A stretch of 64,000 nt of DNA from Bacteroidales bacterium UBA3297 (GTDB lineage Bacteria > Bacteroidota > Bacteroidia > Bacteroidales > Paludibacteraceae): NCBI GenBank assembly GCA_002362105.1, contig DETD01000026.1:1139-65138 (forward strand), read 5' to 3'. The translations under genes and the position numbers were made by a program. Below, piece after piece: positions 3,959-23,160 of this stretch; within the stretch, counting starts at the first letter, position 1, and the number at the start of each line of letters is the position of its first letter. Under the pieces are notes generated by a model. The model was not told the origin of the DNA. It saw nothing but the letters and a program-made list of their open reading frames with translations, and ran no database searches.

Positions 3959-3959
3959 G

Positions 3960-4820: not shown

Positions 4821-4839
4821 TTGTTTTTCCGTTATGGTG

Positions 4840-4847
4840 CAAATATA
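4840..4847 (-). promoter_or_regulatory. candidate -7 promoter box (TATATTTG) for the LuxR-family regulator
   Basis: The minus strand reads TATATTTG, 20 nt upstream of ATG 4820. Confidence 0.4.
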
Positions 4848-4925
4848 GTGCAATTAGTTTAGAATACCATACATGTGGTATCAAAATGGCATTTTTGTGC
4901 GATTGCCTACCCTGTGCGCTTGCTC

Positions 4926-4933
4926 TAACTTTG
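4926..4933 (+). promoter_or_regulatory. candidate -7 promoter box (TAACTTTG) for metY-cysK
   Basis: TAACTTTG on the plus strand, 68 nt upstream of ATG 5001. Confidence 0.45.
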
Positions 4934-5000
4934 CATCGTCGAAAAGAAAGAAACGACGTTGTAAAAAAAGAAAAACAAAAATATATAGGAGGTTAAATTT

Positions 5001-6284: not shown

Positions 6285-6333
6285 TCAACTCTTCTTTAAA
6301 AATCAATATATCAACCTTTAATTCTCAACGGTT

Positions 6334-7281
6334 ATGAAAATCGCAAAAAAACTTACCGACCTTATAGGAAATACCCCTCTTTTGTCCTTAGACCGCTATG
6401 CCGCTTCAAAGGGCGTGGCTGCTGGTTCTGTTATTGCCAAGCTGGAATACTTCAATCCGGCTGGCAGTGTGAAAGACCGTGTTGCCTTTGCTATGGTGGA
6501 AGATGCCGAGCAGAAGGGTATCTTGAAACCAGGTGCTACTATTATTGAGCCTACAAGCGGAAACACTGGCGTTGGCTTGGCTTTTGTTTCTTCTGTAAAA
6601 GGCTACAACCTGATCCTTACTATGCCTGACTCTATGAGTATAGAACGCCGCAATTTGCTGAAAGCCTATGGCGCACGTCTTGAACTTACCCCTGGTAAGG
6701 ATGGTATGAAGGGCGCTATTGCCAAGGCGGAAAGCTTGAAGGCTGAAATTCCGGGCGCGGTCATCCTACAGCAGTTCGAGAACCTCGCTAACCCTGAAAA
6801 GCACTATCGTACTACGGGCGAGGAAATCTGGCGCGATACTGACGGACAAGTCGATATCTTTGTCGCTGGTGTGGGTACTGGTGGCACTGTTAGTGGTGTG
6901 GGTAAACTGTTGAAGGAGAAGAACCCGAATGTGAAGATTGTGGCTGTTGAGCCTGCTGCCTCTCCGGTTCTTTCTGGTGGCAATCCGGGCCCTCACAAAA
7001 TTCAGGGTATTGGTGCTGGCTTCGTGCCTAAGACGTTTAACCGTGGTGTTGTTGACCAGATTTTCACTGTCGAGAACGACGATGCTATCCGTACCGGACG
7101 CGAATTGGCACAGCAGGAAGGCCTTCTGGTTGGTATTTCTTCTGGTGCTGCTGCCTATGCGGCTTTCCAGTTGGCCAAGTTGCCAGAGAATAAGGGTAAA
7201 AAGATTGTCGCTTTGTTGCCTGATACTGGCGAACGTTATCTTTCTACTATTCTCTATGCTTTTGAAGAATATCCTCTTTAA
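6334..7281 (+). CDS. cysK: cysteine synthase A (O-acetylserine sulfhydrylase)
   Basis: 315-aa ORF with cysteine synthase motifs ([31 protein letters not shown]). Confidence 0.9.
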
Positions 7282-7305
7282 GTGTAGATTTTTTCTGATG
7301 ACGAG

Positions 7306-7348
7306 GCGGGGACATATGTTTGCGGTATGTCCCCGCTTCTCTTTTCTT
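7306..7348 (+). terminator. rho-independent terminator after cysK
   Basis: A 10-bp stem, GCGGGGACAT (7306-7315) pairing with ATGTCCCCGC (7327-7336), is followed by TTCTCTTTTCTT. Confidence 0.65.
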
Positions 7349-7395
7349 CGATAAAACCCCCGCTCTGTTTGAATGCACTTTTCACAGAATTGGCC

Positions 7396-7403
7396 TATCT
7401 TTG
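7396..7403 (+). promoter_or_regulatory. candidate -7 promoter box (TATCTTTG)
   Basis: TATCTTTG lies 28 nt upstream of ATG 7431 and downstream of the cysK terminator. This supports the internal start over the track start at 7320. Confidence 0.45.
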
Positions 7404-7430
7404 CACAATGCAATTATATTCTGTATATCT

Positions 7431-9266
7431 ATGTCTTTAAAAAGTAAGATTCAATCGCTGAAGGTGCCGTTTATCTGGTACGTCTTTTCTGTTGTCTGTG
7501 TGGCCTGCCTTTTCTTATCTTATTGGAACTATGCGTCGGTTGGTGCTGCAAGTGGTGTGGCTGGCTTTATCTATTATATTGTTTCGTGTATCAGTCTTGC
7601 TGTCGGCTTTACCTTGCCGGTGTTTTTGTTGCCAGCCTTGTTCCGCCTGTTCGGTTGGCAGAAAGTGGGCAATGTGTTGCAGGTGCTGCTCACGGGCTTC
7701 CTGTTCTTGCTGGTGGTGGTCAACGGTTTCGTTTATGCCCAATATAGGCTGCACATAAACAGCATGGTTTTACAGATGGTGCTGAAGGCCGGCAGCGATA
7801 TCTTCGCTTTCGATGTTATGTTGTATGTGCGCACCTTTGTCGGACTCCTTTTGGCTTTTGCTTTCGCCTATGCGTTGTTGAAGCTGGCCCAATGGACCGA
7901 CCGCAAGGGGTGGACGGTGTTGAAGCCTTTTTTGTGCGTTTCCCTCCTCTCGCTTTTGGGGGCCAACCTCTTCCACATCTATGCCAAGGCCAATATGCTT
8001 CCGGCTTGCCGTTTGAATGCGCTGCTCCCTTACTATTATCCGTTGTCTGCCAACAAACTGATGGCGAAGATGGGGCTCTCGCTTGCGAAGGAAGATGCCT
8101 TTAAAGCGGCCCGTCATAGTGGTGTGCTGAACTATCCGAAGGCTCCGCTGGTGGTCGATTCTGCAAAGGCTACCCGTCAGAATGTGTTGCTTATTGCTAT
8201 CGATACTTGGAACTATCGGGCTTTTACGCCCGAATGTGTGCCTAACATTACAAAATTTGCCGAAAACGCCTGCGTTTTTACCCACCATCTTAGTGGTAGC
8301 GAGGGTACGCGTGGTGGGGTGTTCAGCCTTTTTACCGGTCTGGTGCCGTCTTATTACGACGACTTCCTTTATTCTGGGCAGCAACCCCTGCTGGTGGAAC
8401 AGTTCCTAGCCGAGGGTTATAACACCAAGGTGCTGGCTAGTGCAACGCTGGAATATCCTGAGTTCTCGAGTATCTTGTTCGCTAAAATTCCGAACCTCCG
8501 TGTCTCTACGCCTGGCATCACTTCTTATGACAGAGACCATCGGATTACGGACGACTTCTTGCTGAGCCTCGACACTTTGGCGGCGTCTAAGGACCCTTTC
8601 TTCGCGTTCTTGTTCTACGATATGGCCCACTCGCCTGAAATTCCGGAACCGTGTACTCACCGTTTTACTCCGTCGTGGAAGTTTGCCGACTATATGAAAC
8701 TCGGGCCCGATTTTGACCCTACTCCTTATTGGAACCTTTACCGTAACACACTCTTCCAGGTCGATTTGCTGATTGGACGGGTGCTGGACCGCTTGAAGGT
8801 GAAAGGGCTGTTGGAAAATACGGTGGTGGTCATTACTTCCGACCATTCGCAAGAGTTTAACGACAATAAGAAGAACTATTGGGGACATGGCTCGAACTTC
8901 TCGAATGCCCAAATTCATGTGCCGTTCATCCTTTACCAGCCGAAACTGCAACCTAGGGTGGTCGACTACCGGACCAACCACTACGATTTGGTGCCTACCC
9001 TTATGCACGATGTGCTGGGGGTGGTGAATCCGACTTCCGATTATTCGTTCGGACGCCTGCTTAACGACTCTACCGACCGTGGCTGGCACCTGGCTGCCGA
9101 TTATTACGGGTTTGCCTTCGTTTTGCCCGATGGCACTATTGTCCAGAAAAACATGTCGGGCGATATGGTGTTCTACGATGCGCATATGAACGAACTCTAT
9201 AATTATCCGCTCAATTTTGAGGAACTGAACCGGCAGTTGCTTAACATGAATTCGTTTTACAAGTAG
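7431..9266 (+). CDS. inner-membrane sulfatase-fold protein (DUF3413/YejM-like)
   Basis: Track ORF is 7320..9266. I place the start at ATG 7431 (MSLKSKIQSL). The N-terminal third is multi-TM. The C-terminal domain has the alkaline-phosphatase/sulfatase fold (NVLLIAIDTWNYRAF, VVVITSDHSQEF). Confidence 0.7.
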   Translation: MSLKSKIQSLKVPFIWYVFSVVCVACLFLSYWNYASVGAASGVAGFIYYIVSCISLAVGFTLPVFLLPALFRLFGWQKVGNVLQVLLTGFLFLLVVVNGFVYAQYRLHINSMVLQMVLKAGSDIFAFDVMLYVRTFVGLLLAFAFAYALLKLAQWTDRKGWTVLKPFLCVSLLSLLGANLFHIYAKANMLPACRLNALLPYYYPLSANKLMAKMGLSLAKEDAFKAARHSGVLNYPKAPLVVDSAKATRQNVLLIAIDTWNYRAFTPECVPNITKFAENACVFTHHLSGSEGTRGGVFSLFTGLVPSYYDDFLYSGQQPLLVEQFLAEGYNTKVLASATLEYPEFSSILFAKIPNLRVSTPGITSYDRDHRITDDFLLSLDTLAASKDPFFAFLFYDMAHSPEIPEPCTHRFTPSWKFADYMKLGPDFDPTPYWNLYRNTLFQVDLLIGRVLDRLKVKGLLENTVVVITSDHSQEFNDNKKNYWGHGSNFSNAQIHVPFILYQPKLQPRVVDYRTNHYDLVPTLMHDVLGVVNPTSDYSFGRLLNDSTDRGWHLAADYYGFAFVLPDGTIVQKNMSGDMVFYDAHMNELYNYPLNFEELNRQLLNMNSFYK

Positions 9267-9312
9267 TGGGGTGGGGTGCCGCCCCCAACCCGCTTACATA
9301 AAGTATAAAAAC

Positions 9313-9345
9313 AAAAAAACTGCGACAGTCTGTCGCAGTTTTTTT
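9313..9345. terminator. bidirectional hairpin terminator between convergent genes
   Basis: CTGCGACA (9320-9327) pairs with TGTCGCAG (9331-9338), flanked by A7 and T7. It sits between the stops at 9266 (+) and 9366 (-). Confidence 0.65.
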
Positions 9346-9365
9346 GTGCTATATCGTTTTGTTTT

Positions 9366-10100
9366 TTACTCGAAGTTGAAGGTGAGTGTGAATATGCGGG
9401 ACGTTAGCTTGTTGATGGCGTCTTGCCATTTTTCGTTGTCCGTACCTACCAGGTCTGGCCGGTCTTTGTCGAGCATGTCGTTGAAGCCGAGAAACATTTT
9501 AAATTCGGGCGCTAGTTTGAAGTAGGGGAGGTAGACGTCGCAACCTACACCAAACTCAACACCATAGTCCATTTGTTTCAACAGCAGGTTGCAGTCTTGC
9601 GATCTGCTCAAGTCTAGTGTCATTGCAGGACCTGCAACCAGATAGGGTCTGTAGTTCTGCATACGCTGGGCGCGCAGTTTGAACAAAAGCGGAAGGTCGA
9701 TGATGCTCGACTTTACGATGATGTCTTCTGGTGCTGGATTCCCTTTGGGGTCTCTATAGCATACCGTACGGTCGTTAAACATCAGCACGGGGTTGAAACG
9801 CAGGTTGAAGTACTCGCCCAGACGCAGGTCGGAAATTATACCAACCGTAAAGCCCGTACCAAAAGAGGTGACGTCCGGATACCAGATTTTACCATCCTTG
9901 TCTGCTACTTTGCTTTGGGCAATGTCGAAGTCCATGGAGTTAAAACCCAGTATAAAGCCGAAATGGTACTGCTTGTTGTCGGCGTTAATCAAGTTCAACG
10001 CTTTCCCGAAATTTTTATATGCCGATTGTGAAAAGACGCTGGTGCTAGCGGTTGCCGCTAGCAGTGCTGCCGTCACAAATATCCTTTTTAGTTTGTTCAT
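9366..10100 (-). CDS. PorT-family outer-membrane beta-barrel protein (T9SS-associated family)
   Basis: 244-aa ORF with a signal peptide (AALLAATASTSVFSQ). It shows alternating beta-strand patterning and a terminal aromatic residue region (TLTFNFE). Its length and the segment IIDLPLLFKLRAQRMQNYRPYLVAGP resemble PorT/SprT-type proteins. The assignment is from memory of the family, not from a search. Confidence 0.6.
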   Translation of the reverse strand: MNKLKRIFVTAALLAATASTSVFSQSAYKNFGKALNLINADNKQYHFGFILGFNSMDFDIAQSKVADKDGKIWYPDVTSFGTGFTVGIISDLRLGEYFNLRFNPVLMFNDRTVCYRDPKGNPAPEDIIVKSSIIDLPLLFKLRAQRMQNYRPYLVAGPAMTLDLSRSQDCNLLLKQMDYGVEFGVGCDVYLPYFKLAPEFKMFLGFNDMLDKDRPDLVGTDNEKWQDAINKLTSRIFTLTFNFE

Positions 10101-10185
10101 CTTTGTATGGTGTGGTAGGTCCCCTTTCGTAAAACGTATTCTATACCGGTTTTATTGGAGTAACCGGTGCAAATTTACAAAAAAC

Positions 10186-12765
10186 TTACATATATAGCCC
10201 CATACCTACGTTTATACCCCATTTGCTGGCTTTCGGGTGGTCGAGGTAGTTGAGGCGTCGGGTTACTTCTACCCTGAATACTTTCAAGAGGTTGTGCAGG
10301 CCGGCGCTGACTTCCATATAGGGTTTGTCGACAAATTCAAACGAGGTCTGGTTCCCGTACTTGTCGGTCGGAAATTGGTAGAGTAGGTGGTCGTCCGCAT
10401 TCTTTTCCAAAAACGGGTTGTTTTTGTCTGAAAGTCCGCCGTATATGGCTTTGAAACGGAAAACCTCTTTCAGGTGAAGCCTTCTGATGCCGGGTATGCG
10501 GCCGAGTAGGAAGCCGTTCATGTTGTAGCACAGGTCTAGCGAGGCGTACTGGTCGGTCAGGAACTCCATGTTGTTCATTAACCAGAACGACTCTTTGGCG
10601 TTGGTGTACGACAGGTTGGCCGCTGGTATGAACAAGAGCGGATACGGTACCTTCTCCCATATTTTCCCCGCTTTCAATACAATGTAGGTGTAACCCAATG
10701 GGGTCAGGTTGTATTTTTGGCGGTAGGTGAACTCTGTCTTGTTCCGGTTGTATTGCGTGCCTAGTAGCCCTTTGGCTGCTGTTGAGTGTCCGAGGGTGAA
10801 TTGCGGAATGTCTTTGTTGATGATGTAGCGCGTACTTTTGTTCTGGTAGTAGCTGATGCCAGGGGCGTACGAGAGGGTACAGTTCAGCGATGTCTGCTCA
10901 ATGTTGTTTACTTCCTCTCCATTGTGTAGCTTGATGTACCGGAGGTCGCCTGCTGGGCTCTCTTCGCTGTGGTAGACGTTGAGGTTGAGGCCGAATCCGT
11001 TGCCTTTCTCGTAGAGGTATTGGAACGTCTGGCTGCGGACATAGGCGAACTGCGATACTTTTTCCCGCTTGAAGGAGTGGATGAAACTGCTGCTGAATTC
11101 ACCTAGAAACCGCTCCGATGGTATGTCCCAGTCGTAATTGATATTCGCCATCAGCGAGTGGCGTGGAAAATCCATTTTGCTGAATTCTTTCTCACGGAAC
11201 GAGTATTCCAGCTCGGCCTTATATTTGAGGCGCTCGTCTTTGGTGCCATAGGCCAGATAGCCGTCGAGGAAGAGGTGGTTGTTCAGGGCCGGATTGGTGC
11301 GCCCGCCCACGCGGAAACGGTTGCCCTCTAACTCGTTTCTCGAGTAGGTGCTCATGACACGCCCATAATCGAAATAGCCGTGTTTGCCTATGGTCATGTA
11401 GCCTTCAATGCAGGTCTTTATCAAGTATTCGCTGATGTTGAACAGGGTGCTCTCGTCCATTTTCCGGACGAGGGTGTCTATTCTTGACTCGTTTTTGCTG
11501 AGTTGGTCGGGCCTCGATGCCGCCCAGAACTCGTTTGACTGCATTTTCGCGTCTTTTTGGGTGACGATGTTTTCTTCGCGGGCGAATACCGATTTGTCTA
11601 TGTCGTGCCATTTATAGCCGGTGTAGTAAACGTCGCGTTTCGCATAGCCGCCTTGCAACCCGTCTATAAAGGCAATTTCAGAAATCATGCGTTCGTGGGT
11701 AATGGCCCATCTGCCTTCCTCGTTTTGAGTGTAGTCTTGCTCTATATGCAGTTTCTCCACCAAGTTGAGTTTAATGTCTCGTGGTATGTCCATTTTCACC
11801 TTTTTCACGGCATACGAGCTGTCGGTGGAAATGTAGAGGTAGCCTGTGAAGCCGAGGTCGCTTGTGTTCGCGGGTATAAATGTCATTTCGGTGTAGCGTT
11901 TCCCGTCTTCAAGGGTTACGGTGTCGGTTATGTAGAAGTGGTAGAAGGTGGTCGCCATAACCGAAAGCGGACTCATAAACTTCTCGATGAAGATGTCGAT
12001 GTTGTTGTCGTATATTTGTACGTCGGTAAAGCATTCGTTCAGCAGGTTGTCTATCATCTCTTCTGAAATGATGTTCATTACCGTTTTGTTGTTCTGGGCT
12101 GTAATGGTGCGTTTCAGACGTTCGGGCGACTTCTGGTAGCTGATGTCGCTCAGGTTCTCCCTTACCGAGACGGGCAGGTAGGTCTTGTTCGATATTTCCG
12201 ACGAGTCGATGTAGTCGTAAATGTATCCCCAACTGCGCTTGCTCCGTCTGGCCGAGTCTTCTGGTGCCTGTACGTTGTTCAGACCAAGTATCGTTTTCTC
12301 GTATTTCTTTACGGCATAGTAGTCGGTCGAGCGGATGTCGTTTGAGTCGCGATGGGCTATCACCTTCTTCATCAACTCAACCGATGGATTTCCTTTCCTG
12401 CGGTATTTTTCGCGGCGTTTGCCTTTTACTACTACTTCTCCCAGTTCTTGTGCTTCTTCGGGGCTGAGGCGTACGTTCAGGCGGTGGCCGGCCTTTTTGA
12501 GGTCAATCACTTTGGTTTTGTAGCCCAGGTAAGAAATTTCCAGTTTGTCCGACTTCAAGACGTCGGTTTCCAGCCTGTAGAATCCCTGTAAGTCGGCTTC
12601 TGTTCCGAATGGCGTGCCCTTGTAGATGACGGAGGCGAAAGGAAGCGGCTCGCCGCTTATGGAATCTTTGATGAAGCCTTGGTACACGACATCTCCGGCA
12701 TGCACGTTGTGTAGGCCGAAAATAACAAGCAAAAGGAATAGTGTGTGTCGTAGGTTCTTTCTCAT
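10186..12765 (-). CDS. large envelope protein with N-terminal CarboxypepD_reg-like domain (DUF5686-type)
   Basis: 859-aa ORF with a signal peptide. The N-terminal domain is carboxypeptidase-regulatory-like (GFIKDSISGEPLPFASVIYKGTPFGTEADLQGFYRLE). The long C-terminal region is predicted beta-rich and ends in an aromatic residue. Confidence 0.65.
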   Translation of the reverse strand: MRKNLRHTLFLLLVIFGLHNVHAGDVVYQGFIKDSISGEPLPFASVIYKGTPFGTEADLQGFYRLETDVLKSDKLEISYLGYKTKVIDLKKAGHRLNVRLSPEEAQELGEVVVKGKRREKYRRKGNPSVELMKKVIAHRDSNDIRSTDYYAVKKYEKTILGLNNVQAPEDSARRSKRSWGYIYDYIDSSEISNKTYLPVSVRENLSDISYQKSPERLKRTITAQNNKTVMNIISEEMIDNLLNECFTDVQIYDNNIDIFIEKFMSPLSVMATTFYHFYITDTVTLEDGKRYTEMTFIPANTSDLGFTGYLYISTDSSYAVKKVKMDIPRDIKLNLVEKLHIEQDYTQNEEGRWAITHERMISEIAFIDGLQGGYAKRDVYYTGYKWHDIDKSVFAREENIVTQKDAKMQSNEFWAASRPDQLSKNESRIDTLVRKMDESTLFNISEYLIKTCIEGYMTIGKHGYFDYGRVMSTYSRNELEGNRFRVGGRTNPALNNHLFLDGYLAYGTKDERLKYKAELEYSFREKEFSKMDFPRHSLMANINYDWDIPSERFLGEFSSSFIHSFKREKVSQFAYVRSQTFQYLYEKGNGFGLNLNVYHSEESPAGDLRYIKLHNGEEVNNIEQTSLNCTLSYAPGISYYQNKSTRYIINKDIPQFTLGHSTAAKGLLGTQYNRNKTEFTYRQKYNLTPLGYTYIVLKAGKIWEKVPYPLLFIPAANLSYTNAKESFWLMNNMEFLTDQYASLDLCYNMNGFLLGRIPGIRRLHLKEVFRFKAIYGGLSDKNNPFLEKNADDHLLYQFPTDKYGNQTSFEFVDKPYMEVSAGLHNLLKVFRVEVTRRLNYLDHPKASKWGINVGMGLYM

Positions 12766-13132
12766 TTTTTTCGTTGCTATATCTTCCGCTGTTACTGCGA
12801 AAGTTGTGCCAAACTTTTAAAGGTCTGGCTGTTTTTCCATTCGCCCCATCCTATGTCTTCATTGCCTCGCTGCCACCCACCCTTCAGAAAATCTAACATT
12901 ATGCCCATTCTTTTGTGGTGCCGAGGCTGTTGTTTATGTCCCACATCCTCGTTGCTCGGACGGTTATATATAGGCTGATTTTTGCGTTTCGCAAAATTAG
13001 CAATTAGGCGGAAACCATGCAACCGGGGTTAGCGGACGGAGGCCCGGTACTGTATATAGCTTGTTGTAATCATTGGGTGCTAAAATAACCTGAGGCGCAA
13101 GCCAGGTGTTATGTTGTTTTAATCGCATCAGC

Positions 13133-14632
13133 CTACTTTATTTCCAAATACTGCCATATTCCGTCTTTCTTTATAGGGAGGTACCTGTTGGAAAGGTCTT
13201 CTGTGTTAATCTCGTCCGCGTAAAACACTTTCGACTTCTTTTTATTTCTATGGAAATACCGGTATTTGCCATTGCCTTCATCAAAAACATAGTGAGTATG
13301 GTAGTGATGGGAATCTGGCTTTATTAGATAATCATCACTTCGCAAGTATTCTGGCATGCTATCCGCTAATAGTTTGCCACGTTTGTCATAAAAGTTTTGT
13401 TTCCAGTCTTTTATTCCTATATAGTATGGTTTGTCAATGTAAATATCATCGAAGTGGGTTGGTATTATGGTGTTCCCATTTTTGTCTATAATTCCATTAT
13501 ACATTCCTTTCTTTATGCCTATATGCTGGTTGCTGTTCAAACCTGTTATTAGGTCGATGCTGTCAGTCGAAAGCCGACTTTTCAGTATCCATTTTTTTCC
13601 AGACTTTTCCAAACTGCACTTTCCCAACTTTATGCGGTTTATTTTCGTTCCGTCCATCGTCACGGCAAAAGTTTCCTCCTTGTTGTCGTAAAAAAGTATG
13701 TTTTTAAAGTAGCCCGAAAAATTGTGTTTTTCAGGAGTCAAGGGTGTCCCGTCTAACTTAAAGACCCTTAAATGCAAATGACCTGCTCTTTGATATTCTG
13801 TTACAATTAGTTTTTTCTCCCAGATAAATCCTCTACACCATTCGGATTCGTCTTTTTCTTTGACCCCACACAATTCTTCTTCTGTCATAGGTAGGACTTG
13901 TTTTTTTCCACATTTGTCGTTAAATATAAAGATTTTGCCGTCTTTATGAAGAAAAAAAGAAGTATACATTGGGTAATACTCTACAAAGCCGTTGTGGCAT
14001 AAAATATGTTTTGTAGGCCTTATGTCGCCTTCTAATACCACATTTAAATTCTCATCATATAGCTTATGGCTGCTACGTACAAGTCTGTATTTGTCGTATA
14101 TGTATACGTCGCAATAATCCTTCGGCCAAGATGAGAATGTGTCTCTTTGGACGACGTTCCCCTTTTTATATAGTACCCTTTCTATAGACGTGTATGTAGG
14201 ATCTAATTTTCTATAGGCGATGAAGTTATCCTTCATTGGGTAAAATTCGAAAACATTGTCTAATAATATGGTGTCACCTTTAATTTTCCTGTCCTTCAGA
14301 TTGCCGAAACAAAATGTATCTTCTTCTGATACCTGTGGAAGATCGTCGTAAAATAGGATATAACCTACTTTCGTTAAACTCATATTCTCGTGAACATCGG
14401 ACACGATAGCCTTTTTTTTGATATCTATAATATCAAAATTGCTACAACAATCTATACAATTTGGTTTGTATATTTTTGCATAACCGTTATAAATTGGACT
14501 TATTTGACCTATCTGATTTTCAACTTGGTATTCAGCAAGGAATTTGTTTGCCCACTTCAAATGGTTTGAAGCCTGTGTGTTTACAAGGCAGAACAAGGAA
14601 AAGAGTAACAGTATGTATTTTCTTTTTTTCAT
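13133..14632 (-). CDS. secreted WG-repeat-like protein, cassette gene A copy 1 (function unknown)
   Basis: 499-aa ORF with signal peptide MKKRKYILLLFSLFCLVNTQA. C-terminal modules resemble WG/KWG beta-repeats (IGIKKGMYNGIIDKNGNTIIPTHFDDIY, LPIKKDGIWQYLEIK). It has many Cys residues and is a paralogue of 15986..17494. Confidence 0.75.
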   Translation of the reverse strand: MKKRKYILLLFSLFCLVNTQASNHLKWANKFLAEYQVENQIGQISPIYNGYAKIYKPNCIDCCSNFDIIDIKKKAIVSDVHENMSLTKVGYILFYDDLPQVSEEDTFCFGNLKDRKIKGDTILLDNVFEFYPMKDNFIAYRKLDPTYTSIERVLYKKGNVVQRDTFSSWPKDYCDVYIYDKYRLVRSSHKLYDENLNVVLEGDIRPTKHILCHNGFVEYYPMYTSFFLHKDGKIFIFNDKCGKKQVLPMTEEELCGVKEKDESEWCRGFIWEKKLIVTEYQRAGHLHLRVFKLDGTPLTPEKHNFSGYFKNILFYDNKEETFAVTMDGTKINRIKLGKCSLEKSGKKWILKSRLSTDSIDLITGLNSNQHIGIKKGMYNGIIDKNGNTIIPTHFDDIYIDKPYYIGIKDWKQNFYDKRGKLLADSMPEYLRSDDYLIKPDSHHYHTHYVFDEGNGKYRYFHRNKKKSKVFYADEINTEDLSNRYLPIKKDGIWQYLEIK

Positions 14633-14716
14633 TATTCGAGTTTTAAAATGTTTCTTGATTTACCATAGACTTCTTGTCCTTTTTTAGTTAATATGAACTG
14701 AAATGGGAAGTATAAA

Positions 14717-15859
14717 TTAGTTTAATTTAATTTCAAAGTTCAGTCCATATTTATTTTTTATCAAACTCCAGTATTCTTCACAACTTTTACCCTTTAAAGG
14801 AAAAGGGTAGTACAACGTACTTATTGGTTCTATATTTACTTTCGTAATATAGCATACGGAAGGTCCTTCGTCATACGCAAAACACTTTCGTTCTCTATCA
14901 TAAAAGAAATCTTTATCACAGTCTACATCAAGTATGTATTTTGCTTCCTTTTTTTCTAAGTCGACAAGAACAAGAACGTCCTTACAATAAACACATTTTT
15001 TTCCTAAGAAATAGCGTTTGTCGTCAGATTCAACAAGCGGTTCAATATCTTTTGAAACAAGTTCCCGGCCTGATTTTTTGTTTTCATAAACCATATAGGC
15101 TTGATGGGTTTCTCGAATCCACTTATATTCTGTTGTGTACTTGGCTTTTATGTACTCGTTAAAATTCTTCCGATTAAAAACTTTCTTGATATAGTTCTCT
15201 CCCTGTTTTATGTATAGAATAATATCCCTTTCGCCATTATAGAAATCATCGTCTTCATCTCCCATTTCAGAACAATAACAGATTATAGAATCTCCAGAAC
15301 CAATAAAAGACGGATCGTAAAGATATTCAATACAATTGCCTTTTAAAGTGTCAATGGGTATCGTAGTTTCTTCGGTGCGAAGATATAGAACTTGGTAATC
15401 TAAATCCTTTTTACGTGTCATTAAAAGCATTTTGCCTTCTGTGGCGTCTTCATATTCGAGTCCTATTTCAACTTCAAAAAAATTTTGGTAATAATCCCCT
15501 TTTTTTATGGCAATAATATCTGGCTTTTCAAAAATCTCATCTAAAGATAGTTCATTTCTAAATAAGGAAAAGTTTCCGATTTTTCCGTCTTTAAACATCT
15601 TTTCAAAAAATCTTGAGTCTCCCTTTTTGGGAACTTCAAGAATTTCCGTTTTTTCAAACCCTTTAAAATTGAAGTCGTAGGATTCTAATGAATCTATGGC
15701 TTGAGGTTTTGAATCTATGGCTTGAGTGGTATCTGTTGTTTGTGTGTCAGCGTCTGTGGCTTGAGGTTCCTTATTTAGGCAAATAACAACTATGCAAATA
15801 CTAACTAATAATACCAATATAAAAATTAATGATTTAATCTTCTGTTTCATATTATTCAT
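14717..15859 (-). CDS. membrane-anchored or lipoprotein Cys-rich protein, cassette gene B copy 1 (function unknown)
   Basis: 380-aa ORF with an N-terminal hydrophobic anchor (IKSLIFILVLLVSICIVVIC). A T/D/Q-rich linker follows (ATDADTQTTDTTQAIDSKPQAIDS), then a Cys-rich domain with no motif I recognise. It is a paralogue of 17578..18693. Confidence 0.7.
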   Translation of the reverse strand: MNNMKQKIKSLIFILVLLVSICIVVICLNKEPQATDADTQTTDTTQAIDSKPQAIDSLESYDFNFKGFEKTEILEVPKKGDSRFFEKMFKDGKIGNFSLFRNELSLDEIFEKPDIIAIKKGDYYQNFFEVEIGLEYEDATEGKMLLMTRKKDLDYQVLYLRTEETTIPIDTLKGNCIEYLYDPSFIGSGDSIICYCSEMGDEDDDFYNGERDIILYIKQGENYIKKVFNRKNFNEYIKAKYTTEYKWIRETHQAYMVYENKKSGRELVSKDIEPLVESDDKRYFLGKKCVYCKDVLVLVDLEKKEAKYILDVDCDKDFFYDRERKCFAYDEGPSVCYITKVNIEPISTLYYPFPLKGKSCEEYWSLIKNKYGLNFEIKLN

Positions 15860-15985
15860 TTCTTATACATCCAAAAACTTATTATATTTTTCAACTGATT
15901 TCCTCACGTATTTGCGTTAGTACCACACTCCGCTATTATTTTGTATGTTCTTCTCATTTTACTTCATTTTTTTAAGCGCATCAGC

Positions 15986-17494
15986 CTACTTTATTTCCAG
16001 AAACTGCCATATTCCGTCTTTCTTTATAGGAAGGAACCTGTTGGAAAGGTCTGCTGTGTTAATATCGTCTGCATAAAACGCTTTTGATTTCTTCTTATTT
16101 CTCAGCCAATAGCGGTATTTGTTTTTGCCCTCTTTAAAAATGACGTAACGGAATCTGTCTCCATACGGGATGCTATTACTTATACCATACGAGCTGTCTG
16201 TAAAGCCATCTTCGTCTTCTGTCATAATTTCAGTCATTCCTTCCGCTAACAATTTGCCTTTTTTGTTAAAAAGTACATATTCATACCCTTTTTGCCCTAT
16301 GTAGTATAGCTTATCAATGTAAATCTTGTCGTAGCAAATTGGCAATATGGATTTTCCATCTCTATCAATAATGCCTATATATTTTCCCACCTTTATTCCG
16401 ATGTGTTTGTCGCTATTCAGACCAATTATCAGGTCAATGCTGTCAGTTGAAAGCGGACTTTTCAGCACCCATTTCTTTCCAGACTTTTCCAAACTGCATT
16501 TCCCCAATTTGATTTTAGGTGTTGAAAATCCGTCAATTGTAGATGCAAACGCTTCTTCTTGCTTGTCGTATATGAGGTAATCCTTGAAGTAGCCAGAAAA
16601 ATAATGATTCTTAGGGGTGACAGCTACCCCCTTCAGGTTATAGCCCCTTCTGCACATAACGATTAATTTCTTGTCCCATAAAAAAGACACATTATAACAA
16701 TGGTAGCCATTATCATCTTTTTGGATCTTGAGGGGAACAACATATTTTTTCTTACATTTTTCATTGTAAATGTTCATACTATCCTTTAAAAAGGCGAAAA
16801 AGGAATAGTTGTTTGGATACATCTCAATGAAATCGTGGTGTGGCATTTCTACCACACCAGCATCAACATCTTCATCTATCACTTTTTTTAAATTTTCATC
16901 GTAAAGTTTCCCTTTTATCCAACAATATCTGTCATAGATAAAGTGTGCTCCATAAGGTCCAATTCCAATTTCGTAAAAGCATGTGTCACTATGTATTGAC
17001 TTTCCCTCTTTGTATATTGTCATTTTGACTAAAGTATCAGTGTTGGCAATTTTTTTATAGACAATAAAAAAATTACGAGCTGTCTGCCACTCATACACAC
17101 TATCTGTAACGGTTTCACCTCCAAATTTCCTAATTCCGCGGTTAGATCCGTTATAAAGTTTAAAGCCATTTTCGTCTGTCTCACCTGCGTCATATAAAAT
17201 ATACTCACCCATTGTAATATCATCGACTTGATAACCCTGATAATCCACTTCAAATACTCTATTTTTAATGTCTATGTAGCTTTCGATTCCTGGAGCAAAC
17301 ACCATTCCAGTGTAGGCTTTATCATAAGATTCTAAGAGTGCATAACCTTTATAAATAGGGCTCAATCCCCTTATTTTATACTTTATTTGATGCTCTTTAA
17401 GAACTTTGTTTACCCATTTCAAATCGTTTGAAGCCTGTGTATTTACAAGGCAGAACAAGGAAAAGAGTAACAGTATGTATTTTCTTTTTTTCAT
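15986..17494 (-). CDS. secreted WG-repeat-like protein, cassette gene A copy 2 (function unknown)
   Basis: 502-aa ORF. Its first 23 residues are identical to A1 and the C-terminal ~165 residues are highly similar to A1. The central ~300 residues are only distantly alignable. Confidence 0.75.
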   Translation of the reverse strand: MKKRKYILLLFSLFCLVNTQASNDLKWVNKVLKEHQIKYKIRGLSPIYKGYALLESYDKAYTGMVFAPGIESYIDIKNRVFEVDYQGYQVDDITMGEYILYDAGETDENGFKLYNGSNRGIRKFGGETVTDSVYEWQTARNFFIVYKKIANTDTLVKMTIYKEGKSIHSDTCFYEIGIGPYGAHFIYDRYCWIKGKLYDENLKKVIDEDVDAGVVEMPHHDFIEMYPNNYSFFAFLKDSMNIYNEKCKKKYVVPLKIQKDDNGYHCYNVSFLWDKKLIVMCRRGYNLKGVAVTPKNHYFSGYFKDYLIYDKQEEAFASTIDGFSTPKIKLGKCSLEKSGKKWVLKSPLSTDSIDLIIGLNSDKHIGIKVGKYIGIIDRDGKSILPICYDKIYIDKLYYIGQKGYEYVLFNKKGKLLAEGMTEIMTEDEDGFTDSSYGISNSIPYGDRFRYVIFKEGKNKYRYWLRNKKKSKAFYADDINTADLSNRFLPIKKDGIWQFLEIK

Positions 17495-17577
17495 TATTCA
17501 AGTTTTAAAATGTTCTTGATTTACCATAGACTTCTTGTCCTTTTTTAGTTAATATGAACTGAAATGGGAAGTATAAA

Positions 17578-18693
17578 TTAGTTTAATTTAATTTCAAAGT
17601 TCAGTCCATATTTATTTTTTATCAAACTCCAGTATTCTTCACAACTTTTACCCTTTAAAGGATAAGGGTCGTACAGCGTACTTATTGGCTCTATATTTAC
17701 TTTCGTAATATAGCATACGGAAGGTCCTTTGTCATACGCAAAACACTTTCGTTCTTTGTCGTAGAAGAAATCTTTATTACAATCTACATCAAGTATGTAT
17801 TTTGCTTCCATTTTCTCCAAGTCAACAAGAACAAGAACGAACCTACGATAAACACATTTTTTTCCTAAGAAATAACGTTTGTCGTCAGATTCAACAAGCG
17901 GTTCAATATCTTTTGAAACAAGTTTTCGACCTGATTTTGTGTTTTCATAAACTAAATAGACTTCATCGACTTCTCTAATCCACTTATATTCTGTTGTATA
18001 CTTGGCTTTTATGTACTCGTTAAAATTCTCCCGATGAAAAACTTTCTTGATATAGTTGTCGTCCTGTTTTATGTATAGAATAATATCCCTTCCGCCATTA
18101 TAGAAATCATCGTCTTCATCTCCAAGTTCAGAACAATAACAGATTATAGAATCTCCAGAACCAATAAAATACGGATCGTAAAAATTCTCAATACAATTGC
18201 CTTCTAAAGTGTCAATGGGTATCGTGGTTTCTTCGGTACGAAGATATAGAACTTGGTATTCTAAATCCTCTTTATTTGTCATTAGGAGCATTTTGCCTTC
18301 TCTCGCATCACTAAATGCGAGTCCCTTTTCAACTTCGTAAAAATCTTGGTAATAATCCCCTTTTTTTATGGCAACTAAAGAGCTACTATGGCTAAATAAT
18401 GAATAGTCTCCGATTTCTCCTATTTTGCGCATCTCTTTAAAGAATTTTGAGTCTCCCTTTTTGGGCACTTCAAGAATTTCCGTTTTTTCAAACCCTTTAA
18501 AATTGAAGTCGTAGGAATCTAATGAATCTATGGCTTGAGGTTTTGAATCTATGGCTTGAGTGGTATCTGTTGTTTGTGTGTCAGCGTCTGTGGCTTGAGG
18601 TTTCTTATTTAGGCAAATAACAACTATACAAATACCAACTAATAATACCAATATAAAAATTAATGATTTAATCTTCTGTTTCATATTATTCAT
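17578..18693 (-). CDS. membrane-anchored or lipoprotein Cys-rich protein, cassette gene B copy 2 (function unknown)
   Basis: 371-aa ORF. It is highly similar to B1 throughout, except for a replaced and shortened segment after FFKEMRKIGEIGDYSLFSHSSSLVAIKKGDYY. Confidence 0.7.
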   Translation of the reverse strand: MNNMKQKIKSLIFILVLLVGICIVVICLNKKPQATDADTQTTDTTQAIDSKPQAIDSLDSYDFNFKGFEKTEILEVPKKGDSKFFKEMRKIGEIGDYSLFSHSSSLVAIKKGDYYQDFYEVEKGLAFSDAREGKMLLMTNKEDLEYQVLYLRTEETTIPIDTLEGNCIENFYDPYFIGSGDSIICYCSELGDEDDDFYNGGRDIILYIKQDDNYIKKVFHRENFNEYIKAKYTTEYKWIREVDEVYLVYENTKSGRKLVSKDIEPLVESDDKRYFLGKKCVYRRFVLVLVDLEKMEAKYILDVDCNKDFFYDKERKCFAYDKGPSVCYITKVNIEPISTLYDPYPLKGKSCEEYWSLIKNKYGLNFEIKLN

Positions 18694-18903
18694 TTCTTAT
18701 ACATCCAAAAACTTATTATATTTTTCAACTGATTTCCTCACGTATTTGCGTTAGTACCACACTCCGCTATTATTTTGTATGTTCTTCTCATTTTACTTTG
18801 TCTTTTCTCACCTCATGGCCACCATAACGTACAGATACCGTAACCATGTGCTCGTTGAAACAGACTCAGGTGTAAAATTGTACTTTTTTCTTGAAAATAT
18901 ATA

Positions 18904-18911
18904 CAAATTTA
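18904..18911 (-). promoter_or_regulatory. candidate -7 promoter box (TAAATTTG) upstream of the cassette array
   Basis: The minus strand reads TAAATTTG, about 210 nt upstream of the B2 start (18693) and downstream of the typA terminator. No convincing -33 TTTG lies at the usual spacing. Confidence 0.3.
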
Positions 18912-19020
18912 ATGTTTTTTGTCTGTTCCGGTATGAACCATACTCCAAAAGTGTGATGCTGAGACTGTTTTGACTTCTGGCACTTCTGCGCACTGACGGA
19001 AGGTTGTAGGCGGGCCTGGC

Positions 19021-19057
19021 AAAAAGAAAGAGGGCATATCTTTCCGATATACCCTCT
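19021..19057 (-). terminator. rho-independent terminator after typA
   Basis: A 12-bp stem spans 19029-19040 and 19046-19057. The single non-Watson-Crick position becomes a G-U pair only on the minus strand. A T-rich run follows on the minus strand (plus-strand AAAAAGAAAG 19021-19030). Confidence 0.65.
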
Positions 19058-19088
19058 TCTGTTTGCTTGTTTATATGCTGTTGTGGCA

Positions 19089-20903
19089 TTATTCACCAGT
19101 TGGACGCTTGGCCGAACGCTTGCGCTCGCCTTCGTCAAGGATAATTTTACGCATACGCATGCTCTTTGGCGTGATTTCTGCGTATTCGTCTTCCTTGATG
19201 TATTCCAACATTTCTTCCAAAGAGAAGACAATTGGCGGAGCCAGCTTAACCTTGTCGTCAGAACCAGCTGCACGCATGTTGGTCAGCTTCTTGCTCTTGC
19301 AGACATTGACCACCAGGTCGTCTTGCTTGTTGTTCTCACCTACAACCTGACCCATATAGACTTCGTCTTGTGGGTTGATGAAGAACTTACCACGGTCTTG
19401 CAGGTTGTTCAATGCGTAGGCGAATACGGTACCGCCTTCCATTGCGATGATGGAGCCGTTGTTGCGGCGCTCCATAGGGCCTTTGTAAGGCTGGAAGTCT
19501 ACGAAACGGTGGGCCATAACGGCTTCACCGGCAGTAGCTGTCAGAACGTTGGTTCGCAAACCGATGATACCGCGTGAAGGAATCATGAATTCCAAGTGCA
19601 CGCGGTCGCCCTTCTGCTGCATATTGACCATTTCGCCCTTACGGGTCTGAACCATTTCAATAACTTTGCCAGAGCCTTCTTCCGGAGTGTCGATGGTCAA
19701 CTCTTCCATTGGCTCGCACTTTACTCCGTCAATTTCCTTGATGATGACTTTTGGCTGGCCTACCTGCAACTCGTAACCTTCGCGGCGCATAGTCTCGATA
19801 AGTACCGATAAGTGGAGCACACCACGACCGAAGACGGTCCAGTGTCCGTCGGCTTCTCCTTTTTCTACACGCAGTGCCACGTCGCGCTCCAACTCGGCCT
19901 CCAAACGGTCGTTGATGTGGCGTGAGGTGACGAACTTACCCTCTTTGCCGAAGAAAGGAGAGTCGTTGATGACGAACTCCATGCTCATGGTTGGCTCGTC
20001 GATGCTGATGGCTGGCAGTGGTTCTGGGTTCTCGGCGTCGCAGATGCAGTCGCCAATTTCAAAGCCTTCCAAACCGACAATCGCACACAACTCGCCATTC
20101 TGCACTTCCTGTACCTTGCTCTGGCTGAAGCCTTCGAATACGCGGAGCTCCTTGATTTTGCTCTTGACCATTGTACCGTCGCGTTTTGCGAGGGTCACCA
20201 TCTGGCCTTCCTTCAGTGTGCCGCGGTGCAGGCGGCCAATGGCGATACGGCCAACGTATGAAGAGAAGTTGAGTGAGGTGATCAGCATCTGGGTGGTGCC
20301 TGGGTTCTCTTTTGGTGCTGGAATGTTCTCGATGATGGCGTCAAGCACTGGTGTGATGTCGTTCTCGCGAGGCTGTTTCCAGTCGGTACTCATCCAGTTG
20401 TTTTTGGCAGAACCATATACGGTAGGGAAGTTGAGCTGCTCTTCTGTCGCGTTCAAGTTGAACATCAGGTCGAATACCTCTTCCTGTACTTCGTCAGGAC
20501 GGCAGTTTGGCTTGTCTACCTTGTTTACTACTACAATTGGCTTCAGGCCAATCTGAAGTGCCTTCTGCAACACGAAACGGGTCTGTGGCATTGGACCTTC
20601 AAATGCGTCAACCAACAGCAGGCAACCGTCGGCCATGTTAAGCACACGCTCAACCTCACCGCCAAAGTCTGAGTGCCCTGGAGTGTCGATGATGTTGATC
20701 TTGTAACCTTTGTAGCGGATTGATACGTTTTTTGAAACGATGGTTATACCTCGTTCACGCTCCAAATCATTGTTGTCGAGGATGAGCTCGCCAGGCTTTT
20801 CGTGATCGCTGAAAAGTTTTCCGGCTTGTAACATCTTGTCCACCAGCGTAGTCTTACCGTGGTCGACGTGCGCAATAATTGCGACATTCCTGATTTCTTG
20901 CAT
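19089..20903 (-). CDS. typA: translational GTPase TypA/BipA
   Basis: 604-aa ORF with N-terminus [25 protein letters not shown]. The G-domain motifs ([12 protein letters not shown]) and the overall EF-G-like architecture are present. Confidence 0.95.
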
Positions 20904-20944
20904 CGTATCTTTTAGATTTTATGATATATATTCAATTTGGAGTG

Positions 20945-20952
20945 CAAAGTTA
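20945..20952 (-). promoter_or_regulatory. candidate -7 promoter box (TAACTTTG) for typA
   Basis: The minus strand reads TAACTTTG, 42 nt upstream of ATG 20903. Confidence 0.45.
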
Positions 20953-21052
20953 GTTATTTTCAGTTAAACATTATCAATATGTTATGGGAAAAATATGTTG
21001 AGCAACATTATTTTGGGCTGTTCTCTCTGATGCCCGACTTTGATTTATTCTT

Positions 21053-21060
21053 TAACTTTG
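21053..21060 (+). promoter_or_regulatory. candidate -7 promoter box (TAACTTTG) for the MATE transporter gene
   Basis: TAACTTTG lies 84 nt upstream of ATG 21144 and is divergent from the typA promoter. Confidence 0.4.
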
Positions 21061-21143
21061 TGCTGCCTGTTGCTGGGCGTTTGTTTTTTTACTTAATGGG
21101 GGCGGACGGCTTCCTTCCCCCTTTTTAACACATAGGTTCTTTT

Positions 21144-22511
21144 ATGAAAGTTGGAAAATCGCCTGCCGAACTGGGTACCATGCCGGTGGGTAAACTTCTG
21201 GTGAGTTATTCGTTGCCCCCTATCGCGGCAATGATGGCTTCCTCGGTCTATAATATTATCGATAGCGCTTTCCTCGGCCACAGCGTGGGCGACTATGCGC
21301 TCGACGCTATGGCTATTACTCTGCCGCTGATGAATGTGGCGGCGGCTTTTGGCGCTATGGTTGGCGCGGGTGGCAGCACGTTGATCTCCATTAAGATGGG
21401 ACAGAAAGACGAAAAGGGGGCCGCCCATGTGTTGGGAAACATTACCGTGCTGAATATTATTCTGGGATTGACCTTAATGACGGTCGGGTTGCTGTTTATG
21501 GACCCTATTCTGACGGTTTTCGGTGCCAGCAACGATGTCCGCCCCTATGCGGCTGAGTTTATGACTATTATTCTGCTGGGTAACGTGTTTACCCATATGT
21601 ATTTCGGCCTGAACAATGCATTGCGCTCAAGTGGTAATCCGAAAATGGCGATGAATATGACGTTCCTGACGGTGGGTATCAACCTGGTCCTTGCCCCGTT
21701 GTTCATCTTCGTCTTCGGTTGGGGACTGAGGGGGGCCGCTTTGGCGACCATTACAGGGCAGATTGTCTCGTTGGCGTTGATTGTCCGCTATTTCTCCAAT
21801 CCCCAGCAGTTCCTGCATTTCCAACGCTGGACTTTCCATTTGAAGGGGTCTATAGTCAAAGGTATTCTTTCCATCGGTATCTCTCCCTTCCTGCTGAACC
21901 TCTGTTCCTGTTTGGTGGTCATCCTCATCAACCACCGGCTCTATGAGTTTGGCGGCGATCATGCGATTGGCGCCTACGGAAACGTCAACAAGGTGCTGAT
22001 GCTGTTCGCTATGGTGGTGTTAGGCATCAACCAGGGCATGCAGCCAATTGCGGGCTATAACTTCGGCGCCCGCCAGTTCCACCGTGTGATTGAGGCTCTG
22101 AAATATGCCGTGCTCTATGCCACTTCTGTCATGTTGTTCGCCTTCACCATGTGCGAACTGTTCCCTACTATAATTATGCGCTTGTTCTCTCAGGGCGAAG
22201 ATATGGTAGAGGCTTCGGCTTATGGTTTGAGGATTACTATTGCCACCTTCCCTATTGTAGGCTTCCAAATGGTGGCTTCCACTTTCTTCCAGAGCATCAA
22301 CAAGGCGTTTATCGCCGCCATTCTTTCCACTACCCGCCAACTCTTGTTTCTGGTGCCGCTTCTGGCCTTTTTGCCAAATTTCTGGCAACTCGATGGGGTG
22401 TGGTTCAGTCTGCCGATTGCCGACACGCTGTCGTCGCTGCTGACGGCTGCCGTGCTCTTCTGGCAACTGGGCAAGTTTAAGGAAATGGCAAGACAGAATG
22501 GATTTAAATAA
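21144..22511 (+). CDS. MATE-family multidrug/compound efflux transporter
   Basis: 455-aa polytopic membrane ORF of about 12 TM segments. The N-terminal GKLLVSYSLPPIAAMMASSVYNIIDSAFLGH is typical of MATE/NorM-type proteins. Confidence 0.85.
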   Translation: MKVGKSPAELGTMPVGKLLVSYSLPPIAAMMASSVYNIIDSAFLGHSVGDYALDAMAITLPLMNVAAAFGAMVGAGGSTLISIKMGQKDEKGAAHVLGNITVLNIILGLTLMTVGLLFMDPILTVFGASNDVRPYAAEFMTIILLGNVFTHMYFGLNNALRSSGNPKMAMNMTFLTVGINLVLAPLFIFVFGWGLRGAALATITGQIVSLALIVRYFSNPQQFLHFQRWTFHLKGSIVKGILSIGISPFLLNLCSCLVVILINHRLYEFGGDHAIGAYGNVNKVLMLFAMVVLGINQGMQPIAGYNFGARQFHRVIEALKYAVLYATSVMLFAFTMCELFPTIIMRLFSQGEDMVEASAYGLRITIATFPIVGFQMVASTFFQSINKAFIAAILSTTRQLLFLVPLLAFLPNFWQLDGVWFSLPIADTLSSLLTAAVLFWQLGKFKEMARQNGFK

Positions 22512-22527
22512 CCTAAAATCAACTGTT

Positions 22528-23160
22528 ATGGATGGTAACAAGAACAATATAGTCATCAGCGTCGGCCGCCAGTTCGGCTGTAAAGGCCGTGTTATCGGCA
22601 AGGCTTTGGCCGAACGTTTCGGTTTCAGTTTTTACGATGCCGAACTCCTCAACCTTGCCGCCAAGGAAATAGGATTCGACCCTTCTATGTTTGAAATGGC
22701 CGACGAGAAACCTGGACTGCCGGAGTTCTTCCAGAATGTGGGCCAGCTTTTGTTCGGCATGAATGGCGGTGCCGACAGCTACCTCTCGAGCGCCAAACTG
22801 TTTGAAATACAGAGCGAGGCTATACGGCATGTTGCAGAAGTAGGCCCCTGTGTTATTATGGGCCGTTGCAGCGATTATGTGTTGCGTGACAATCCGAACC
22901 TGTTCAGTGTGTATTTCTCGGCTCCGCTCGATTTCCGTATTGCCTGTGTGAAAGAACGCTCGGGTATTACCGACGACGAGGCGGTGCGCGATATTATCTT
23001 GAAGACCGACAAGAAACGTGCGGCCTACTATAACTATTATACCGATAAGGTGTGGGGACATTCGGCTAGCTATAACCTTTGTGCCGATGTTACTATGCTG
23101 GGTGTGGAACAGACGGCTGTTTTTGTTGGCGATTTTATTAAGGCAAAATTTGGTTTGTAG
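22528..23160 (+). CDS. cytidylate-kinase-like family protein (P-loop NTPase)
   Basis: Track ORF is 22498..23160. I prefer ATG 22528 (MDGNKNNIVISVGRQFGCKGRVIGKALAERFGF) because it avoids overlap with the MATE gene. The start remains uncertain. The glycine-rich loop and length fit the cytidylate-kinase-like family. Confidence 0.65.
   Translation: MDGNKNNIVISVGRQFGCKGRVIGKALAERFGFSFYDAELLNLAAKEIGFDPSMFEMADEKPGLPEFFQNVGQLLFGMNGGADSYLSSAKLFEIQSEAIRHVAEVGPCVIMGRCSDYVLRDNPNLFSVYFSAPLDFRIACVKERSGITDDEAVRDIILKTDKKRAAYYNYYTDKVWGHSASYNLCADVTMLGVEQTAVFVGDFIKAKFGL

Follow-up and report, generated by a model that had tools for sequence, protein, structure and literature searches.

The subject of this work is a low-GC island of four genes in a 64,000-nucleotide (nt) stretch of DNA, here called the window, from the genome of Bacteroidales bacterium UBA3297 (Paludibacteraceae; contig DETD01000026.1). 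The genes are all encoded on the minus strand, in the transcription order B2-A2-B1-A1, with typA upstream and a DUF5686/CarboxypepD_reg gene downstream (Table 1). The GC content is 30-37% in the island and 47-53% in its flanks, and homology with the island DNA of the related contigs L001, L004 and L010 stops at about 13067 and about 18806. Throughout, L numbers denote related contigs (L001, L002, L004, L010-L015, L018, L019, L022 and L023) and P numbers related proteins. A preliminary description had read this DNA as two head-to-tail units, each of a secreted A protein and an anchored B protein, and its four minus-strand open reading frames (ORFs) proved to be of the kind and size it gave. We consider it quite likely that the locus is an orphan, that is toxin-less, polyimmunity array, with two copies each of two families, belonging to a polymorphic toxin system not described before, in Paludibacteraceae-like Bacteroidales of rumen or gut.

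The repeat unit, present twice, consists of a Y 5' scar, a CT3 scar, B, a CT1 scar and A, where CT1 and CT3 are two of the alternative C-terminal domains (CTs) of a protein X and Y is a further gene family, all of them found in related loci. Directly upstream of A1 and A2, decayed 3' ends of X-CT1 genes translate to ..SRNILKLE and ..IKNILKLE, each followed by two stop codons; intact X-CT1 genes end in ..KNILNLE or ..KHILNLE and a stop. Upstream of both B1 and B2 lies the CT3 scar, ISFWMYKK with its stop plus about 20 further decayed codons. In front of B2 this scar reads AECGTNANT, stop, GNQLKNIISFWMYKK, stop, with the last stop overlapping the B2 start codon, and the intact gene of L018 ends in ILECGPNVKNADCPLWANMAGNLLNNISFWIYKK and a stop. 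Read as a whole, the ~80 nt upstream of B1 and of B2 give MRRTYKII joined to that CT3 remnant, i.e. the first eight codons of a Y gene fused to a CT3 tail. The preliminary description had missed this 25-nt remnant of Y, a third gene family found in the immunity position. As expected of an orphan or polyimmunity locus, the window holds immunity-position genes together with remnants of toxin genes, and a tblastn search of its 64 kb detected no X, Y or other partner gene.

Table 1. Features of the island and of the genes bordering it (window coordinates; aa, amino acids).
Feature	Position	Strand	Basis
Low-GC island between the DUF5686 gene and typA	13067..18806	-	GC shift and homology limits
A1, 499-aa orphan copy of the A family	13133..14632	-	ORF
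B1, 380-aa orphan copy of the B family	14717..15859	-	ORF
A2, 502-aa beta-repeat protein, predicted Sec-exported, X-CT1 immunity position, orphan	15986..17494	-	ORF; family position in L004, L012, L013
B2, 371-aa protein, predicted exported/anchored, X-CT3 immunity position, orphan	17578..18693	-	ORF; family position in L018
Decayed X-CT1 3' end upstream of A1	14633..14665	-	Translation
Decayed X-CT1 3' end upstream of A2	17495..17526	-	Translation
Decayed X-CT3 3' end, stop overlapping the B2 ATG	18690..18766	-	Translation; compared with intact L018 gene
X-CT3 3' remnant, second copy, running into the B1 start codon	15856..15932	-	Translation
25-nt Y-family 5' remnant (MRRTYKII) upstream of B2	18767..18791	-	Aligned to Y starts of L004, L010
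Second Y 5' remnant, between A2 and B1	15933..15957	-	Alignment
A2 conserved 3' handle (last 45 codons, stop and GCTGATGCG motif)	15974..16123	-	Nucleotide conservation
A1 conserved 3' handle	13121..13270	-	Nucleotide conservation
Weak terminator-like hairpin past A1	13088..13107	-	Consensus scan; conserved past terminal A genes of L004, L001
DUF5686/CarboxypepD_reg gene	10186-12765	-	Pfam
typA	19089-20903	-	Synteny with L004 gene bearing GTP_EFTU and BipA_C

The intact counterparts of these remnants were found in related loci. In L004, the syntenic interval between typA and the DUF5686 gene holds, in this order, B, A, Y, X, A, Y and an AAA-ATPase_like/PDDEXK_9 gene. The X proteins have about 580-660 aa, and their N-terminal parts are 91-94% identical up to a junction, FLTDDEDGW, just before which lies a zincin-motif region (AHELGHGLYSFQHAFDY...NLMDYG). 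Past the junction we observed, in the related loci and not in the window, four unrelated CT types: CT1 with the motif HECIH or HECVH, CT2 with HEFGH or HEFAH, CT3 with ACCNMC...DNHVF, a possible Cys/His pair (L018), and CT4 with a Peptidase_M43-like region and HELGHWL. The junction can be likened to the VENN motif of CdiA and the DPxGL motif of Rhs proteins. In a longer form of X, P0033, which is cut by the end of its contig, a Sec signal peptide and FN3 are both present. The copies of ~600 aa start within an FN3 domain and have no signal peptide, and therefore look like truncated orphan toxin cassettes. They open with MGLYLNPNADA (L004 8151-8183 and 13167-13199; X starts of L012-L015) and then continue within FN3, and the same 11 residues begin the AAA-ATPase_like/PDDEXK_9 gene that ends the L004 and L010 islands; from this common start, the orphan toxin cassettes were apparently fused to the 5' end of that gene. 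The L001 and L010 islands hold two additional candidate cassettes, namely a family Z of ~337-343 aa without signal peptide and a 314-aa X fragment with HEFAH that is followed by a 342-aa exported protein (jointly at L001 9298-10311 and 12723-13754 and at L010 10695-11708).

Each CT type is followed by a partner of its own. CT1 is followed by A in three loci (L004, L012 and L013), CT2 by an unrelated 317/342-aa family, CT3 by B (in L018, after an 8-nt gap, by a B-family gene 83% identical to B1) and CT4 by Y. Stop and start codons overlap or lie at most 8 nt apart in every one of these pairs: X and A overlap by 1 nt in L004 (TGATG), share an ATGA in L012 and are 2 nt apart in L013, and ATGA overlaps were also seen downstream of X-CT2 in L014 and between X-CT4 and Y in L001. 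At one chromosomal site the whole module is swapped, L012 and L013 having X-CT1 with A (495 and 492 aa) and the syntenic L014 and L015 having X-CT2 with the unrelated 317-aa gene. Since X combines a constant N-terminal region and a junction with exchangeable CTs, and the downstream genes go with the CT type, the architecture is most likely that of a polymorphic toxin/immunity system; it would be a new example of a known strategy of bacterial warfare and not a new kind of system. The preliminary description had taken A and B for a gene pair, a view that the related loci contradict: A follows X-CT1, B follows X-CT3, and each copy in the window has its own decayed toxin 3' end. The best-supported view from gene order is that A and B are independent cassettes, presumably cognate to CT1 and CT3, respectively, and not a functional pair.

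We propose that the window strain would have kept no more than the downstream genes, namely two alleles of B and two of A, each with the decayed last codons of its cognate toxin. A, which from its predicted cleavable Sec signal is presumably exported, and B, with its signal-anchor or lipoprotein signal, would reach the periplasm or the envelope. There they might bind the peptidase-like CT1 and CT3 domains that come in from neighbouring strains and neutralise them, and two diverged A alleles would allow a wider range of CT1 variants to be resisted. Homology arms could be provided by the B gene, by the spacers with the toxin remnants in them, by the A signal peptide and by the 3' end of A, which hardly varies, and the mosaic divergence would arise in this way. 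Homologous recombination would swap A cores and whole cassettes between strains, with diversifying pressure acting on the cores. The toxicity of the CTs, their neutralisation, the cellular location of A and B and the role of the handles in recombination are steps that we infer.

Several observations weigh against an orphan polyimmunity array. The CTs matched none of the toxin families in Pfam, CT4 alone reaching Peptidase_M43, and the zincin and Cys/His assignments of CT1-CT3 are based on short motifs. CT3 and B were found together at only one locus type (L018/L019). No secretion genes adjoin X in L012-L015, and the long form of X has a signal peptide and FN3 only. With ~500 and ~375 aa, A and B are large for immunity proteins, and the near-invariant 45-residue tail of A is unexpected in a simple immunity protein. 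The structure model of B had a mean predicted local distance difference test score (pLDDT) of 33.6. Foldseek searches with the A model against PDB and BFVD returned generic beta-propeller/WD40-like matches only, with template modelling (TM) scores of 0.07-0.26, which say nothing on function.

Some of these features would also fit with A and B being accessory factors of X, for maturation, export or as adaptors, or resistant versions or decoys of the envelope target of the toxin, the orphan copies being kept for that purpose. Both proteins are large, exported and beta-rich, and the tail of A is conserved as though it touched a constant partner. Bacteroidales are known to replace toxin targets by resistant alleles, which counts in favor of a decoy. 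We nevertheless judge such a role to be unlikely. The partner genes are specific for the CT type and swap along with it, which is the behavior of immunity genes and not of shared export factors. Moreover, A and B persist in the window without X, beside decayed toxin ends, and with no X present an export accessory would be useless there.

Comparison of the two units supported the orphan-array interpretation from another side. A sliding window over their global alignment, together with substitution rates per segment, confirmed the strongly non-uniform divergence noted in the preliminary description. The B genes and every junction show 92-100% identity between the units: it is 95-100% from ~105 nt upstream of B through the B 5' end, ~92% in the B body, with one 27-nt indel and variable patch near 15540-15640, and 98-100% from the B 3' end through the spacer and into the A signal-peptide codons. 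Identity then falls to ~27-58%, near random, over A codons ~24-290 and amounts to 60-93% in the A 3' third. The substitution counts given earlier for the two most similar blocks were exact, with 2 substitutions and one 1-nt indel in 236 nt between 14565-14800 and 17427-17661, and 4 substitutions in 304 nt between 15661-15964 and 18495-18798. Random 236-nt pairs from the island were 28% identical on average and 47% at most.

At the protein level, B1 and B2 are 84% and A1 and A2 45% identical. Nei-Gojobori estimates of synonymous (dS) and nonsynonymous (dN) divergence between A1 and A2 gave a dS of 0.07 for codons 1-23, saturation for codons 24-330 (dN 0.60), a dS of 1.2 for codons 331-430 and of 0.45 for codons 455-499 (dN 0.10). 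The last ~165 residues of A, described as highly similar, are so in part: residues 331-430 are 64% and residues 455-499 82% identical, but residues 431-454 only 30%. Between B1 and B2, dS was 0.03-0.23, and dN/dS was elevated, at 0.5-0.75, over codons 61-300.

Two head-to-tail units with near-identical junctions and no known-family annotation might also have arisen by plain tandem duplication of a lineage-specific secreted pair, for instance an adhesin or a nutrient-binding protein, with flanks homogenised by gene conversion and no role in toxin defence. This is very unlikely in our opinion. Synonymous sites are saturated in the cores of A1 and A2, which makes these old alleles and not drifted duplicates. 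Remnants of toxin and Y genes make up the junctions between the units, A and B are found apart from each other and directly downstream of different X C-termini, and each allele recurs nearly identical, in different combinations, in other strains.

These combinations are as follows. The window pairs B1 with A1 and B2 with A2; L023 has B1 (98%) with A2 (99.8%), and in L022 a B2-like gene (91%) goes with A1 (99.8%), after which comes a third A. Mosaics were seen within the A gene as well, A1 and P0002 alternating between blocks of 97-100% and of 27-50% identity. In L001, an A2-like gene carries a frameshift, and an A1-like gene breaks off at codon 131, where an X-tail scar and then a further A take over; L012 and L014 retain an A 3' remnant upstream of X. 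In the metagenome-assembled genome (MAG) CAMNDM01 (L010 and L011), A1 is 100% identical at the amino-acid level and the island DNA 90.7% identical, whereas housekeeping DNA is 74% identical to the window. This suggests a horizontal spread of the island or, alternatively, a binning error of the 12.6-kb contig that carries it. The reshuffling of alleles between strains and the intragenic mosaics agree with the earlier proposal of recombination at conserved flanks with exchange of a variable A core. The proposal that the locus is driven by conflict, for which immunity had been named among the options, holds up as well.

An assembly artefact, named in the preliminary description as an outcome that would undo its claim, is hardly credible. 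It is true that contigs of relatives often break at the conserved A 3' handle, that L011 ends 10 nt past the stop of an A gene and that many related contigs have only ~4 kb. The two units differ by 27% overall, however, and the same B-A-B-A order with the same junctions was present in independent assemblies of other samples (L001, L002 and L010); junctions from A to B to A recur in the independent assemblies L001/L002, L010, L022 and L023.

Conserved ends around a variable core and intragenic mosaics, together with model loops of low confidence that coincide with the hypervariable segments, would also be compatible with surface antigenic variation, in which recombination between silent and expressed A cassettes of a single genome would vary an exposed protein and allow escape from phage or host. 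We regard this explanation as highly improbable. Each of the two A copies is complete, with a signal peptide, and they apparently lie co-oriented in one operon, not in the manner of silent cassettes. Invertases, recombinases and inverted repeats are absent, and neither A nor B matched the anti-phage models of PADLOC or the phage models of PHROGs. Antigenic variation would, furthermore, leave the linkage with the X CTs unexplained. None of the rival explanations considered here accounts for both the CT-specific linkage and the toxin scars.

The A and B families are small. A database of 5.8 billion proteins yielded 15 relatives of A at 33-99% identity and nine of B at 71-100%, and those with a named source come from MAGs labelled Paludibacteraceae. 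Among 185,579 GTDB species representatives, one MAG only carries A; the A profile had no match when JGI metagenome contigs were scanned with it, and the A 3' handle was not found in IMG/VR. The B profile retrieved its own cluster and four weak relatives from 1.84 billion representative proteins. Sequence searches of the PDB with CT3 and with X-CT1 gave no match. Against Pfam and NCBIfam, neither protein had a match above threshold, with B at noise level and A1 giving a sub-threshold hit to WG_beta_rep (PF14903; 20 bits, gathering cut-off 25.6). A2 had no match to this family, which was detected in six of 17 A-family members at E<=0.01 (best E 3.5e-10). The WG-repeat assignment made earlier is below the cut-off for A1 itself, although part of the family matches. 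Like WG_beta_rep proteins, A has beta-hairpin repeats in its C-terminal half, modelled as regular hairpins with pLDDT above 90. The AlphaFold2 model of A1 (pLDDT 75.8) is all-beta, and this C-terminal half is its confident part. To our knowledge, PF14903 has no assigned function, so that membership says nothing on mechanism.

Throughout the family, hardly any variation is seen in the last 45 residues of A (KYRY.LR.KKKSKVFYADEINTEDLSNRYLPIKKDGIWQYLEIK). The corresponding 135 nt and the first bases past the stop are ~85-95% identical across all A genes, including pairs that share only ~33-35% of their amino acids overall, and dS in this handle is 0.4-1.1 while the cores are saturated. Judged from these values, the conservation would indicate purifying selection as well as a more recent shared ancestry. 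As a sorting signal of the type IX secretion system the tail was rejected: it had no Por_Secre_tail or type-B C-terminal-domain match in Pfam or NCBIfam, and it was modelled as WG-like repeat hairpins. A tentative and rather doubtful extension of the orphan-array reading is that A is a modular immunity protein. Its C-terminal WG-repeat module would double as protein scaffold and DNA recombination arm, and the signal-peptide end would provide a second arm. Such a fixed frame would take up specificity segments swapped by homologous recombination, between strains and within the gene, and the population would then hold a cassette repertoire of toxin-recognition specificities rather than independent immunity genes.

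B had been described as anchored; its N-terminus reads either as a signal-anchor, in agreement with this, or as an atypical lipoprotein signal. Remote B-like secreted proteins of ~360 aa (P0038-P0041) have the common motif DGKYILGKKYLYG...FAFD. One of them, on the JGI contig of P0039, sits downstream of an unannotated 1327-aa protein at a distance of 6 nt, and a gene of similar size (367 aa) comes after it, which hints that a wider B superfamily may occupy immunity positions, too. In L018, a protein of at least 730 aa (MRHLLIYIVFCLALLPRTCYAWDETT...; 3134-5323) comes after B. Its signal peptide is grafted onto the B genes of L001 (3037-3160) and L010 (583-705), and ~300-aa fragments of it sit after the immunity genes in L012 (13222-14106) and L014; this protein may be the start of another long toxin.

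Observations on the surroundings of the island concern its transcription and insertion. A strong terminator-like hairpin with a 14-bp stem and a T-run (19027-19059, minus strand) lies just past the typA stop, and the island therefore probably has its own promoter. Matches to the sigma-70 promoter consensus, which is not applicable to Bacteroidetes, were at chance level in number (25 found, 22.9 expected). Folding of the hairpin past A1 was not superior to that of shuffled sequence (z 0.59), which makes it weak evidence. On the typA side, L004 1-5468 is 90.5% identical to window positions 17341-22794, and on the DUF5686 side L004 14977-21478 is 77% identical to 6333-12824; so sharp a contrast between flanks suggests, from identity values, a recombination boundary at the island. 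A further A paralog was found in L011 (9716-11506, MAG CAMNDM01) downstream of a 621-aa gene syntenic with window positions 46004-47899. A CT1 tail scar, ..KYKDIYNLE with its stop, lies in front of this paralog, which is the A gene past whose stop the contig ends. The window has no insertion at the corresponding site (~47899-48370; homology stops at 48063), which looks like a second insertion hot spot.

An orphan polyimmunity array at this locus would tie four orphan families (A, B, Y and the 317/342-aa family) and a new toxin scaffold, made of Sec signal, FN3, zincin-motif region, FLTDDEDGW junction and variable CT, into one antagonism system of a poorly studied lineage, the Paludibacteraceae-like Bacteroidales. 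On present database matches, A, B and the partner families appear to be new and limited to this one lineage, and they match no curated family. CT1-A and CT3-B are candidate toxin/immunity pairs. A is an unusual immunity candidate, being large and exported with an invariant tail and an intragenic mosaic, and could show how recombination drives the diversification of specificity. The locus would also represent a chromosomal hot spot of orphan immunity between housekeeping genes that does without a recombinase.

The preliminary description had recognised no characterised system with this gene pair. This stands for the families, but the architecture is that of polymorphic toxins with orphan and polyimmunity loci (PMC3482391; bioRxiv 10.1101/471110). 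Polymorphic toxin systems include the orphan CT/immunity modules of Rhs and CdiA, and their polyimmunity loci may be homogeneous or heterogeneous (Zhang et al. 2012, PMC3482391). In contrast to the described systems, neither the CTs of X nor their partners belong to a Tox, Ntox or Imm family, and X has none of the RHS, filamentous-haemagglutinin, PAAR, VgrG or LXG trafficking domains, the long form having a Sec signal and FN3 only. The partners are unusually large and are exported, and A combines a near-invariant C-terminal module with intragenic mosaicism. The likeness extends to a constant N-terminal region, alternative CTs at a conserved junction and a CT-specific, tightly coupled downstream gene. 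The zincin-motif domain of X just before the CT resembles the "releasing peptidases" of these systems, and truncated toxin copies, toxin-less immunity arrays and recombination between conserved segments are shared as well.

The other relevant comparison is with the acquired interbacterial defence (AID) clusters of gut Bacteroidales, i.e. AID-1, AID-2 and the recombinase-associated rAID-1 (Ross et al. 2019, bioRxiv 10.1101/471110; Azhieh et al. 2025, PMC12247911). Unlike rAID-1, the island has no XerD-type recombinase and consists of B2, A2, B1 and A1 only, bounded by typA and the DUF5686 gene. Integron-like repeats are absent, too; the intergenic repeats of the window are toxin-tail and Y remnants, and no inverted-repeat sites were found. 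The island further differs from AID clusters in having no mobile-element context, no homology to type VI secretion system (T6SS) immunity genes and no linked T6SS, and in its hosts, which are Paludibacteraceae-like MAGs and not human-gut Bacteroides. It would thus extend the idea of defence by orphan immunity genes past the T6SS-linked AID clusters of human-gut Bacteroides. In common with these clusters, the window locus would be an orphan immunity array without cognate effector, in a Bacteroidales genome, and it has a skewed GC content; there is evidence of horizontal spread, and the orphan genes diverge from the cognate copies and bear signs of rapid evolution.

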